From: Bacteroidota bacterium
GTDB taxonomy: Bacteria; Bacteroidota; Bacteroidia; 2-12-FULL-35-15
Assembly: GCA_040389865.1 (NCBI GenBank)
Contig: JAZJZM010000007.1
Location: forward strand, 195,271 to 259,270
Direction of reading: 5' to 3'
DNA length: 64,000 bases
Made by a program: the position numbers and the translations under genes. Shown piece by piece: positions 14,415 through 16,617 of this stretch. The notes beneath the pieces were generated by a model that saw nothing but the letters and a program-made list of their open reading frames with translations, had not been told where the DNA came from and searched no databases. Position 1 is the first letter of the stretch; every line of letters starts with the position of its first letter.

Positions 14415-14471
14415 CAGGGGCAAACGGATCTGAAATTTGTTTGTACCGGTCGCGCCTAATGGCGCTTATTT

Positions 14472-14598
14472 CCCCCGCAGGTAGGGATTGGCAATTACTA
14501 CTAAATAGTTAAAGGATTTGCAATCAGATTCGGTTTAAAGCTCATATTAATTCACACCTTAACTCTTGGGTCGTGATTACAAATCCCGACCAGCGGGG
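14472..14598. mobile_element. MITE-like repeat copy A (short terminal inverted repeats CCCCGCAGG...CCAGCGGGG; internal TTGCAATC..GGTTTAAAGCTCATATTAATTCACA and GGGTCGTGATT..CCCGACC)
   Basis: ~85% identical over shared segments to copy at 15211-15403; termini are reverse complements. Confidence 0.5.
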
Positions 14599-14675
14599 TC
14601 GCCCTTCCTCTCGTACCAAGCTACTTTCCTTCTCTTTTTCTCAATCTCCACAGGTCATACAATGTCTTTATTCTT

Positions 14676-15187
14676 TTAACGATTATAGGGAATATGTATC
14701 TCCTTTATTTCAGCTATTTTTTTAATATCGTTTTTTAATTTTGAGTAGGATTCCAAAGAACCCTTAGTACATAAAATATACGTTTCTTTAGATTGTATTT
14801 CCATCTTCATAAGTTTATTATTTATATCATCTAAAAATTGTACTTTGAATGTATCTTGAAAAAACCTGCTTTTAGTTTTAAAGAATAATTTAATATCCTT
14901 TTTATCCTTACAATAGACCTTATGAATAGCCTTAAACTCCCATTCCCTTACCGAATCACAAAAATTTGTTGTTCTTGGTAAACCAGAAACACTATCTCCA
15001 TAAAACTGAAGCAAATTCAGTTCAAGACAACCTCTAATATCGTGATTTCGATATATTAGCGAATCGATACTCCAGTCACCATCTAAAATAGTAAGCACTT
15101 TTTTTCTATCACTATTGTCGCAACCTGTAATAATTAATACAACAAAAGTCAATTTAACTATATAACTAATTTTCTTAATATTCATTT
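14676..15187 (-). CDS. Hypothetical lipoprotein (start taken at MNIKKISYIV..; lipobox ITGC)
   Basis: ORF 14676..15254(-); internal Met gives classic signal peptide+Cys; no recognisable domain. Confidence 0.5.
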
Positions 15188-15210
15188 TGCTATTGTAATT
15201 AAAATAGTTA

Positions 15211-15403
15211 CCCCGCTGGTAAGGACTTGCAATCCGATTTGTTTTAAAGCTCATATTAATTCACATCTATTAAGCCTTTCATATCTGAATAACTTTCAGC
15301 AGAGCTAAAAATTATAGCAAACTTAACAAACAATTGGGTTATTATTTGCCGTAATTACGAATCTCTGGCTCTTGGGGTCGTGATTGGAAGACCCAACAAG
15401 CGG
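15211..15403. mobile_element. MITE-like repeat copy B (same family as 14472-14598, with ~100-bp internal insertion)
   Basis: Left terminus CCCCGCTGG; right terminus CAAGCGG; shares TTGCAATCCGATTTGTTTTAAAGCTCATATTAATTCACA and GGGGTCGTGATTGGAAGACCC with copy A. Confidence 0.5.
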
Positions 15404-15435
15404 AATTTTGTTTAGATATTTTTTGAGATAAATAA

Positions 15436-15828
15436 TTATGCTGCTTCCAGAATAAACTGAGCATCAATGTTTAGCTTACTATGTAATTTTTTAGCTAATT
15501 CAATATTTATTTTCCGTTTACCGGTTAACAATTCTGAAATTCGGGTTTCACTTATACCGAGTACCTTGGCTAATTGCTTTTGTTTTAGATTCATTTCAAA
15601 CATTTTGTACCGAATCATTTCAGTGAGGGTAGTAGGATATTTTATCGGCATCAGTGGAATGCTGTCCTCGTATTTTTCTGCCATTAAAGAAAGTTGCTTT
15701 AATGTTTCTAATTCTTTTGCTGGTAAATTTTCAGAGCCTCTGTTTTTGGTGGTTTTTTGAAGTAATTTTTCAATACGTTTCATTACTTCATCATACTCTT
15801 TTCTGTCACTTATTTTATTTGTTTTCAT
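15436..15828 (-). CDS. higA: HigA-family antitoxin, XRE-type HTH DNA-binding protein
   Basis: HTH motif LKQKQLAKVLGISETRISELLTGKRKINIELAKKL; immediately downstream of HigB-like toxin, same strand; start at MKTNK (ORF-track start 15864 would overlap toxin). Confidence 0.75.
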   Translation of the reverse strand: MKTNKISDRKEYDEVMKRIEKLLQKTTKNRGSENLPAKELETLKQLSLMAEKYEDSIPLMPIKYPTTLTEMIRYKMFEMNLKQKQLAKVLGISETRISELLTGKRKINIELAKKLHSKLNIDAQFILEAA

Positions 15829-15848
15829 AATGTACGATTTGTTTAAAA

Positions 15849-16142
15849 TTATATTTCTGAACAATCTATCTTATCGTATTCTGCATGTGTTCCTACAAAC
15901 CGAATAAATACTGTCCGAATATTGAAAAATATCATTGCTACTAATCTGTATTTATTTCCTTTGATATTAAACACGTACCTATCGTTTCCCACATAATCAA
16001 CTGAGTTAAATGATTTTTTTATATCATTAAGACTATTCCAATCAGCTTTTTTGCTGACATCATACCATTTGTTCAATGCTTCTATTGAATCTGAATGCTT
16101 GGCTCCGAATTCTGCAAAAATCGTCTTAGATATTATTACCAT
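15849..16142 (-). CDS. higB: HigB-family type II toxin (RelE/ParE superfamily mRNA interferase)
   Basis: 97 aa; ...DWNSLNDIKKSFNSVDYVGNDRYVFNIKGNKYRLVAMIFFNIRTVFIRFVGTHAEYDKI matches HigB_toxin family signature; toxin-first order typical of higBA. Confidence 0.8.
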   Translation of the reverse strand: MVIISKTIFAEFGAKHSDSIEALNKWYDVSKKADWNSLNDIKKSFNSVDYVGNDRYVFNIKGNKYRLVAMIFFNIRTVFIRFVGTHAEYDKIDCSEI

Positions 16143-16214
16143 TTTAGCAAATTATATTACAAATATATAAATTTAATTTTATTTTTGGAAATTTAATTAC
16201 ATTTTAATTTATAC

Positions 16215-16345
16215 TAAAACTGGCGTCCCCTAATGCCATCCCGAACTTTTTGTGATCCGGCAGTACTGCGGGATTGTTGTTTACGAATGATACCGCTAAC
16301 CACTTACAAGCCCCCTCTTGGCGAAAAGACAATCGGGATGACATT
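16215..16345. repeat. Degenerate copy of family-1 palindromic intergenic repeat (GC-rich island CCCGAAC...CCGGCAGTACTGCGGG...CGAAAAGACAATCGGGATGAC)
   Basis: Segments align to copy at 47110-47225 (CCCGAAC, GCGGGCAGTATCG, CTCGAAAAGCTCGGGATGAC); followed by hairpin GTGAATAAA-AGTGGTCG-TTTATTCAC at 16346-16371. Confidence 0.4.
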
Positions 16346-16617
16346 GTGAATAAAAGTGGTCGTTTATTCACAAATTTTAAAATTAACGTAATGATAGAAT
16401 TAATTCTGAATAAAAATTAAACAGGATATAAAAGCAATTAAATTCCACATATTTCCATAATATCCAACCTTTCGATAGCTTTCTGAAGCAATATTTCTAT
16501 TTTTGCAAATACTTTTATAAATGAGTAGATGCAACTAATTTTTGAAGAAAGACATCTTACTACCATTGCGAAGAACACAATGTTTCCAATGATTTTTATT
16601 AAAAAAAACAGCAAGGC

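Follow-up and report, generated by a model that had tools for sequence, protein, structure and literature searches.

RayT-type REP doublets, a HigBA pair and a candidate immunity lipoprotein gene between two adhesin-like genes of a Bacteroidota bacterium

Repetitive extragenic palindromic (REP) elements are short hairpins with a conserved foot that occur outside genes in multiple copies, also as inverted doublets that form long hairpins (bacterial interspersed mosaic elements, BIMEs; REP doublets forming hairpins, REPINs), and their units flank, in inverted orientation, a gene for a REP-associated tyrosine transposase (RAYT, RayT) of about 180 aa. Among these enzymes, TnpAY1 subclass 2.6 is 'mostly present in Bacteroidetes' and is flanked by atypical hairpins without the GT[AG]G foot (Quentin et al. 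2018, PMC6006769); Table S1 of that study lists CCCCGCTGGTGCGC... (Owenweeksia) and CGTTGGGATTACAAATCCCAACGAGCG (Runella), as well as hairpins with a GCTGG foot in Spirosoma, Aequorivita and Zobellia. Here, 64,000 bp of a Bacteroidota bacterium (assembly GCA_040389865.1, contig JAZJZM010000007.1, positions 195,271 to 259,270; 'the window') were analysed, in which two repeat copies (copy 1 and copy 2) flank a small lipoprotein gene, next to a higB-higA pair, between the second and third of three giant adhesin-like genes (paralogues 1 to 3). The repeats are of a known kind, i.e. subclass 2.6 REPs of Bacteroidetes, and do not overturn current views; the locus as a whole is best explained (probability about 0.78) as an accretion of RayT REP doublets, the higBA pair and a possible orphan immunity lipoprotein gene, not as one mobile island.

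The REP unit of this family consists of the foot CCCCGCTGG and a 10-bp hairpin (GGTCGGGATT-TGY-AATCCCGACC), followed by a short linker and often by a second hairpin (GGGATTTGTAATCCC); foot and hairpin (CCCCGCTGG..., ...GGGATTACAAATCCC...AGCG) match entries of Table S1 of PMC6006769. All of the above features of the REP/BIME/REPIN and RAYT systems are shared by this family. It differs from the REP systems of E. coli and Pseudomonas, which have the GT[AG]G foot that is missing here, by its frequent second small hairpin, and from minimal REPINs in that the doublets of the window hold relics of rayT. Several of the rayT copies found here are damaged.

The arm pattern CCCCGCWKGTNRGGWYTKSYAATYMS was scanned over 185,579 species genomes and gave 20 loci, 19 of which belong to Bacteroidota (Bacteroidia, Bacteroidales, Chitinophaga and Prolixibacteraceae metagenome-assembled genomes, MAGs; Larkinella knui), where about two are expected by chance (own calculation from the information content of the pattern). 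Many of the 8-kb loci contain two to four units, which are arranged singly, in tandem, or as inverted doublets of approximately 100 bp. Over 31 distinct sequences, pairing in the hairpin amounts to 92%, and five of its ten pairs show compensatory changes, which none of 500 shuffles reached. Furthermore, 28 of 32 units lie outside open reading frames (ORFs) of at least 120 aa, and such frames account for 79% of the bases in these loci. The REP unit family is real and Bacteroidota-wide.

Within the window, an initial annotation had described two same-orientation copies of an element with terminal inverted repeats (TIRs) on either side of the lipoprotein gene. The two copies are real: they have in common a 48-nt block (90% identity) that contains an exact 23-mer and, at the right end, a block of 29 nt (79% identity). 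The ends are inverted in both, over about 26 nt in copy 1 (CCCCGCAGGTAGGGATTGGCAATTAC and GTGATTACAAATCCCGACCAGCGGGG), while copy 2 begins with CCCCGCTGGTAAGG... and is degraded to ...CCCAACAAGCGG at its right end; the end quoted earlier, CCAGCGGGG, is exact in copy 1 only. A degenerate arm pattern has exactly four sites in the window versus none expected (100 shuffles), and folding predicts long terminal stems for both copies (z = -3.0/-2.9 for copy 1, -4.1 for the minus strand of copy 2). A REP profile built from 31 units, all of other genomes, recovered the same four arms and no others in the 64 kb, i.e. 14471-14539 (plus strand; 8.5e-10) and 14599-14557 (minus strand; 7.1e-13) for copy 1, and the two arms of copy 2 with nhmmer E = 1.3e-4 and 0.06. 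The flanks (TTATTTC/TCGCCCT for copy 1, ATAGTTA/AATTTTG for copy 2) contain no target-site duplication, as expected for Y1 elements.

The exact 23-mer core (TTTAAAGCTCATATTAATTCACA) had no match in the GTDB species genomes and none in the JGI metagenomes; therefore, the window with its exact spacer is absent from both collections. There were also no matches of the right-end pattern to viral contigs, and Rfam returned nothing for the repeats, either in gathering mode (window and 10 related loci) or in E-value mode (region). A tRNA-like origin was considered, for the loop TTTGCAA resembles an anticodon loop, and was rejected: ARAGORN finds a single tRNA-Met, at 51.9 kb, and the sequences flanking the loop do not fit a tRNA.

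The origin of the two copies is indicated by their alignment to a complete REPtron, i.e. the reverse complement of a locus (L032) with the order unit, leader, rayT, unit. Copy 1 contains one full unit and the stop-codon region of rayT, then a gap of 576 columns, and then hairpin 1 and the foot of the other unit (86% and 97% identity, blastn-short). In copy 2, a deletion of 30 nt has taken hairpin 1 from one unit, the 3' end of rayT is kept over about 60 nt, a gap of 479 columns removes the rayT ORF and its start, and the rayT leader and the other unit follow (89% over 92 nt and 86% over 64 nt, blastn-short). The minus strand of copy 2 still encodes ...FSSAESYSDMKGLIDVN*, in which 16 codons are left of the conserved C-terminus of RayT (motif YLFSSARNYxDMxGLIDV), and the 23-mer common to both copies corresponds, as reverse complement, to the final codons of rayT with its stop codon and adjacent sequence. 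Neither copy is the parent of the other, because the breakpoints differ and each copy carries a deletion that is absent from the other. Judged from these alignments, both copies are internal-deletion derivatives of a RayT REPtron with the form of REPIN- or BIME-like doublets; since relics of the rayT leader and of the C-terminal coding region persist, they are visibly gutted REPtrons and not minimal REPINs.

The earlier designation of the repeats as MITE-like (miniature inverted-repeat transposable element) is apt insofar as they are non-autonomous and deletion-derived from a transposase-bearing element with inverted ends; their parent, however, is a RayT (HUH/Y1) REPtron and not an insertion sequence (IS) with a DDE transposase, and what had been called TIRs are REP hairpin units. 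A pair of classic MITEs, i.e. internal deletions of a DDE IS that are mobilised via TIRs, or a composite transposon that carries the lipoprotein gene, is highly improbable. Inverted ends of about 25 nt, the long-hairpin fold of each element and the direct orientation of the copies around one gene would suit such an origin, but neither copy has a target-site duplication, the REP units that the arms match are found beside Y1 (RayT) genes and not beside DDE genes, the interiors align to the leader and the 3' end of rayT, and the units also occur singly and in tandem, unlike TIRs; moreover, none of the loci of the lipoprotein homologues elsewhere contains REP units. A TIR-type MITE of a DDE IS was rejected as the identity of the repeats on these grounds. 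The palindrome-associated transposable elements (PATEs) and MITEs that are derived from IS200/IS605 are among the closest known elements: they are likewise non-autonomous Y1 elements that arose by internal deletion, with palindromic ends and no target-site duplication; the ends of IS200/IS605, however, are two different subterminal hairpins on one strand, in contrast to the inverted copies of one unit found here.

The units are associated with RayT. In the vicinity of units (1.5 kb), 65 ORFs were examined, two of which encode a Y1_Tnp domain (L010:6165-6707 and L024:4503-4997), and the Y1_Tnp ORFs in five loci (L010, L024, L032, L033 and L034) have inverted REP units on both sides at a distance of 3-70 bp; the rayT gene between these inverted unit pairs encodes 180 aa. 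With scores of 84-100 bits (cutoff 80), the proteins belong to the NCBIfam equivalog NF047646 'REP-associated tyrosine transposase', and they fail the IS200 model; their alignment shows no variation at the HuH histidines or in the Y-x-H-x-N-P motif. In a profile search, the best PDB match was 4ER8, E. coli TnpArep; a PDB search with a single RayT sequence gave no match. The family comprises more than 5,000 members, which are named 'REP element-mobilizing transposase RayT' or 'REP-associated tyrosine transposase' in the source databases.

A RayT with 89% identity to that of L024 is encoded on GCA_040384245.1 (L032) and in the Logan run SRR26324622, a sister run of the sample from which the window was obtained. 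The window's own run (SRR26324623) contains a rayT locus (L034; P0043, MES2141180.1) that is 97.7% identical to the L032 locus, and this rayT is probably part of the MAG of the window, because MES2141180.1 lies 2,364 accessions after the genes of the window. The gene in L034 has a frameshift after FTRK, a nonsense codon (TCA to TAA) and degraded feet (100-610). At the 5' end, rayT also looks damaged in L032, where the ATG of the 180-aa form is ATT (~165-195), and in L024, which has a +1 shift in the first codons (~4990-5030); many RayT entries in the databases are a 164-aa form with an internal start. These damaged copies may reflect decay or sequencing errors in A-runs. In L016 (~4181-4260), coding sequence for the N-terminus of RayT (YRINEGKAHFIT...) directly follows a REP unit and was not called as an ORF; this suggests L016 to be a third REPtron among the 19 arm-pattern loci.

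For the mobility of the doublets, a RayT supplied in trans would bind the REP hairpin on single-stranded DNA (ssDNA) and cut at the foot, by analogy to E. coli TnpAREP (PMC6006769), so that copying or movement of the doublets would leave no target duplications. At their present sites, they might act as hairpin terminators or mRNA stabilisers for the convergent transcripts of paralogue 2 and the lipoprotein gene; copy 2 would separate higBA from the lipoprotein gene, and its rayT leader relic, which points towards the lipoprotein gene, may contribute a putative promoter. A primary role of the repeats as functional RNA or DNA structures that are kept for the benefit of the host, such as bidirectional terminators, hairpins that stabilise mRNA or a small RNA, seems quite unlikely. 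The compensatory changes in the stem would be in line with this explanation, as would the position of copy 1 between convergent genes, right after a terminator-like hairpin, that of copy 2 between higA and the lipoprotein gene, and the known secondary roles of REPs in enterobacteria (PMC6006769). Pairing, however, is needed equally for the recognition of ssDNA hairpins by RayT, the Rfam searches were negative in either mode, and the rayT coding relics inside the copies indicate an origin as debris of a mobile element; a role for the host would be an add-on to this origin rather than an alternative to it.

The spacer between paralogues 2 and 3 is 2,203 bp long, versus 353 bp between paralogues 1 and 2, and the initial annotation had described these 2.2 kb as a mobile-looking insertion that splits an otherwise uniform tandem array. 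The additional DNA extends from 14415 to about 16513, because homology to the region upstream of paralogue 2 resumes at 16514: positions 16514-16617 align to 7376-7478 with 76% identity over 106 nt, and to the initial 95 nt of a relative's contig (L026) with 88% identity. An inverted repeat at 16503-16528, considered as a third degraded REP unit, was dismissed as due to chance, since ordinary sequence upstream of paralogue 2 is homologous to it. The tandem array lacks uniformity and is old: the three paralogues share just 51-53% identity over their first ~2,200 residues and 47-62% in the C-terminal segments.

Four loci of relatives were recovered for comparison. The contig of the closest relative (L026) contains the orthologue of paralogue 3 (87% aa identity) followed by the same LUD-domain gene (97%), and starts 95 bp upstream of the orthologue; L030 contains the orthologue of paralogue 1 (87%) followed by unrelated genes, and L027 a relative of paralogue 3 (67%) with a different neighbour. 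In L029, an adhesin C-terminus and an adhesin N-terminus are separated by about 320 bp with no extra genes, but the orthology to paralogues 2 and 3 is ambiguous. No REP units, higBA or lipoprotein gene are present in any of these four loci, so that, to the extent that these loci show, the insert is specific to the lineage; an unambiguous empty site was not found among them.

A single 2.2-kb mobile island, comprising higBA, the lipoprotein gene and the repeats, that entered between paralogues 2 and 3 in one event and was kept by the toxin-antitoxin (TA) module is unlikely. It would account for the length of the spacer and the resumption of adhesin-upstream homology at 16514, for the GC content of the region (31.5%, versus 41-42% in the flanking adhesin genes), for the two paralogues that lie ~320 bp apart in L029, and for the absence of insert and REP units from the relatives' loci. 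The ordinary 353-bp spacer, however, is also low in GC (29.5%), the pair in L029 is of unclear orthology, L026 breaks off 95 bp upstream of paralogue 3, and the order of genes around the adhesins varies among relatives anyway, hence the lack of a true empty site. Moreover, the 64-kb window contains no integrase, transposase or recombinase, there are no direct repeats at the boundaries of the region, and the only tRNA gene, at 51.9 kb, offers no target; the classification as a genomic island was rejected on the basis of these results together with the missing empty site. Piecemeal accretion is at least as likely as insertion in one event. The placement of the copies on either side of the lipoprotein gene resembles two intergenic REP doublets of independent origin more than a composite transposon; homologues of the lipoprotein elsewhere have no REP units nearby.

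The higB-higA pair on the minus strand beside the repeats was confirmed by the domain matches given in Table 1. HigB is named 'type II toxin-antitoxin system HigB family toxin' by NCBI (MES2138818.1). The two genes lie on the same strand with a 17-bp gap, and the toxin-first gene order is typical of HigBA. The pair is, on the strength of its predicted domains, a type II TA pair; it shares with the known HigBA modules the toxin domain, the gene order, the gap and the helix-turn-helix (HTH) antitoxin, whereas the antitoxin has a 70-aa N-terminal extension and, at 35.6 bits to TIGR02607 (antidote_HigA), stays below the cutoff of 47.7.

The lipoprotein gene between the copies also stands as first described, with the start MNIKKISYIVKLTFVVLIITGC and a lipobox cysteine that is nearly invariant in 40 homologues. 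NCBI calls a protein of 192 aa from 15254 (MES2138816.1, V4511_03860), the ATG of which overlaps the stop codon of the rayT relic (ATGA) inside copy 2; homologues and signal peptide indicate that the start is at 15185 (169 aa). No Pfam or NCBIfam family matches the protein. A word-indexed search gave the lipoprotein itself and two clusters at 57-59% identity, and an exhaustive search gave 114 clusters (50% identity) of proteins of ~155-165 aa with no family name, in which the lipobox cysteine (nearly invariant), G.WSID, two further cysteines and NKLLKME are found.

The closest homologues (two clusters, on the three contigs L003, L004 and L005) are encoded 18-22 bp downstream of ORFs with an Rhs core and a C-terminal toxin (CT) region, for which TIGR03696 is above cutoff. 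Because the closest members directly follow Rhs toxin C-termini and the gene is alone here, the lipoprotein of the window is a candidate orphan immunity protein against a periplasm-acting Rhs toxin, for which we consider the odds to be even; a tblastn search found no Rhs remnant upstream of the gene in the window. The small secreted protein with its nearest homologues after Rhs C-termini resembles the orphan immunity genes of Rhs and type VI secretion systems (T6SS) and the acquired interbacterial defence arrays (AID, and their recombinase-associated form, rAID) of Bacteroidales (orphan immunity: PMC10539506, PMC12247911). It is found here without a toxin, in an accessory patch, which is a further similarity. 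It differs in that it is a single gene and not an array, with no recombinase, in a MAG of an environmental Bacteroidota, and in that the distant members lack a linkage to toxins.

The Rhs ORFs themselves (L003 1-1083, L004 1-921, L005 2-865) carry a C-terminal domain of ~240 aa after a DGIDLDGLE cleavage motif, with no match in Pfam or NCBIfam; it is a candidate for a new periplasm-acting toxin domain that is paired with a lipoprotein. A member of the lipoprotein family is located, both in Pedobacter sp. ASV1-7 and on a related contig from a metagenome (L035 4538-6474, L036 4911-7581), in a run of small same-strand ORFs without Pfam match, the content of which differs between the otherwise collinear contigs (DEAD helicase ... 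MazG); the run resembles an array, variable in content, of genes for small secreted or immunity-type proteins.

The arrangement of higBA, doublet, lipoprotein gene and doublet invites comparison with integron cassettes. The attC sites of integrons and Vibrio cholerae repeat (VCR) cassettes are likewise palindromes, imperfect and 100-190 bp long, that separate small accessory genes of the same strand, among them higBA. Here, however, there is no integrase, core sites of the R''/R' type (RYYYAAC/GTTRRRY) are absent, and the palindromes stem from the locus of a Y1 transposase; with no recombinase in the 64 kb and with ends (CCCCGCTGG/CCAGCGGGG) that lack core sites, an attC or integron identity was rejected. 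A looser cassette system was also considered, in which the doublets would serve as recombination or boundary sites for small defence, TA and immunity genes, integron- or rAID-like, through RayT or homologous recombination. The layout of the window does recur: in L019 (340-3580), a HicB/HicA-like pair, a ParE/RelE-like pair (pairs assigned from translations) and a nucleotidyltransferase gene with a small downstream ORF are interspersed with doublets at 844-935 and 1684-1777; in L006, two doublets bracket two small ORFs beside a gene whose product has a restriction-endonuclease domain; elsewhere, units lie next to MNT/HepT genes (e.g. the MNT/HepT pair in L014); and both doublets of the window are in one spot. 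These examples are few and anecdotal, without statistics, most units in the fetched loci are neighbours of ordinary housekeeping genes, neither a recombinase nor attC-type core sites are nearby, and the other members of the lipoprotein family are without REP units; REPs are generally expected to build up in any place that tolerates insertions, as accessory patches do. A cassette system of this kind is rather improbable. The more general proposal, that RayT REPtrons of Bacteroidota are not domesticated single-copy genes but behave like IS and repeatedly decay to doublets that mark, and perhaps mediate by way of RayT or of recombination between doublets, the gain and loss of small TA, immunity and defence cassettes, is speculative and likewise improbable; if true, it would be an integron-like mechanism of accretion built on a Y1 transposase.

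An accretion of small repeats and genes of a selfish or defensive kind, namely RayT REP doublets, higBA and a possible immunity gene, remains the explanation that we prefer, and we infer a piecemeal origin of the region, but several points weigh against it. Both doublets of the window are located within 1 kb, around one gene, which would be rare under independent random insertion, and the source genome was read over the 64 kb, which contain two doublets with four units. A single rayT was traced to the sample of the window, and it is damaged as assembled, so that current mobility is doubtful and the copies may be fossils; we know of no biochemistry for TnpAY1 subclass 2.6. The foot is (CCCC)GCTGG instead of the canonical GT[AG]G, which does not exclude subclass 2.6, because REPs of this subclass are reported to be atypical. 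As to the lipoprotein, three distant homologues (27-29% identity) are solitary or located in strain-variable runs of small ORFs, not beside Rhs genes, and the CT regions of the Rhs-linked examples are 86% identical, i.e. one closely related toxin lineage, so that the immunity assignment draws on effectively one independent context.

The coordinates of the features are given in Table 1. Paralogue 3 contains PKD, PKD_4 and CHU_C domains (precomputed Pfam matches), the latter for sorting by the type IX secretion system (T9SS), and all three giant ORFs are PKD-repeat proteins with a CHU_C/T9SS sorting domain (Pfam), by which the organism is placed in Bacteroidota. The spacer on the presumed promoter side of higBA includes a GC-richer patch (16220-16345) with a 13-nt inverted repeat (16232-16244 / 16333-16345); it has no match in Rfam and no homology in the fetched loci, and its 55-aa ORF has no Pfam match. 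Beyond the locus, the window (37% GC) contains housekeeping and signalling genes.

Table 1. Predicted features of the adhesin-like gene locus in the window (position 1 is the first base of the window).
Feature	Position	Strand	Evidence or remark
Adhesin-like paralogue 1	13-7125	+	giant ORF
Adhesin-like paralogue 2 (2311 aa), left flank	7479-14414	+	giant ORF
Terminator-like hairpin GCGCC-TAAT-GGCGC followed by TTATTT, directly 3' of paralogue 2	14452-14471	+	consensus scan, pattern match only
REP doublet copy 1, two inverted REP units; interior is rayT stop-codon region only	14472-14598	- (strand of lost rayT)	
Small lipoprotein (169 aa from ATG 15185), candidate orphan immunity gene	14676-15185	-	starts MNIKKISYIVKLTFVVLIITGC
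REP doublet copy 2, gutted REPtron	15211-15403	- (strand of lost rayT)	
Copy 2, REP unit with hairpin 1 deleted	~15208-15235		
Copy 2, rayT 3' relic	~15252-15311		
Copy 2, rayT 5' leader relic	~15313-15343		
Copy 2, degraded REP unit	~15352-15403		
higA-like antitoxin (131 aa), Xre-type HTH at C-terminus	15436-15831	-	PF01381 HTH_3, 2.4e-11
higB toxin (97 aa), upstream of higA	15849-16142	-	PF09907 HigB_toxin, 1.7e-33, 115 bits (cutoff 27)
AT-rich spacer, presumed higBA promoter side	16143-16513	.	55-aa ORF inside
Conserved upstream region of adhesin genes	16514-16617	+	right limit of extra DNA
Adhesin-like paralogue 3 (2664 aa), right flank	16618-24612	+	giant ORF

Other palindromic repeats were observed around the adhesin-like genes. 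The spacer between paralogues 1 and 2 contains a different element (7134-7295) with perfect 19-nt inverted ends (7137-7155 / 7273-7291; GCCACGAATTTCACGAATT) and an inner 33-nt palindrome, which bears no relation to the RayT REP family. A third family of palindromic repeats is represented just downstream of paralogue 3 (24661-24774), with partial copies 20 kb away (44631-44701) and a 96%-identical copy of 114 nt on a metagenome contig of a relative (L028, 3954-4067), upstream of an adhesin gene; the source genome contains several distinct families of intergenic palindromes. A second TA pair, a ParE_toxin ORF (104 aa) with an overlapping small ORF upstream, is located among housekeeping genes at 29499-30046, with no REP units nearby.

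The repeats of this locus, which would otherwise be filed as anonymous MITEs, gain a name and a parent, and copy 2, with REP units, rayT leader and C-terminal codons, is a clear intermediate for the proposed rise of REP doublets from the flanks of a Y1 transposase gene, in a phylum for which the system has barely been described. The start of the annotated lipoprotein gene is corrected, as the 192-aa call begins inside the rayT relic, and the unnamed lipoprotein family (114 clusters) becomes a candidate immunity family for a periplasm-acting Rhs toxin.

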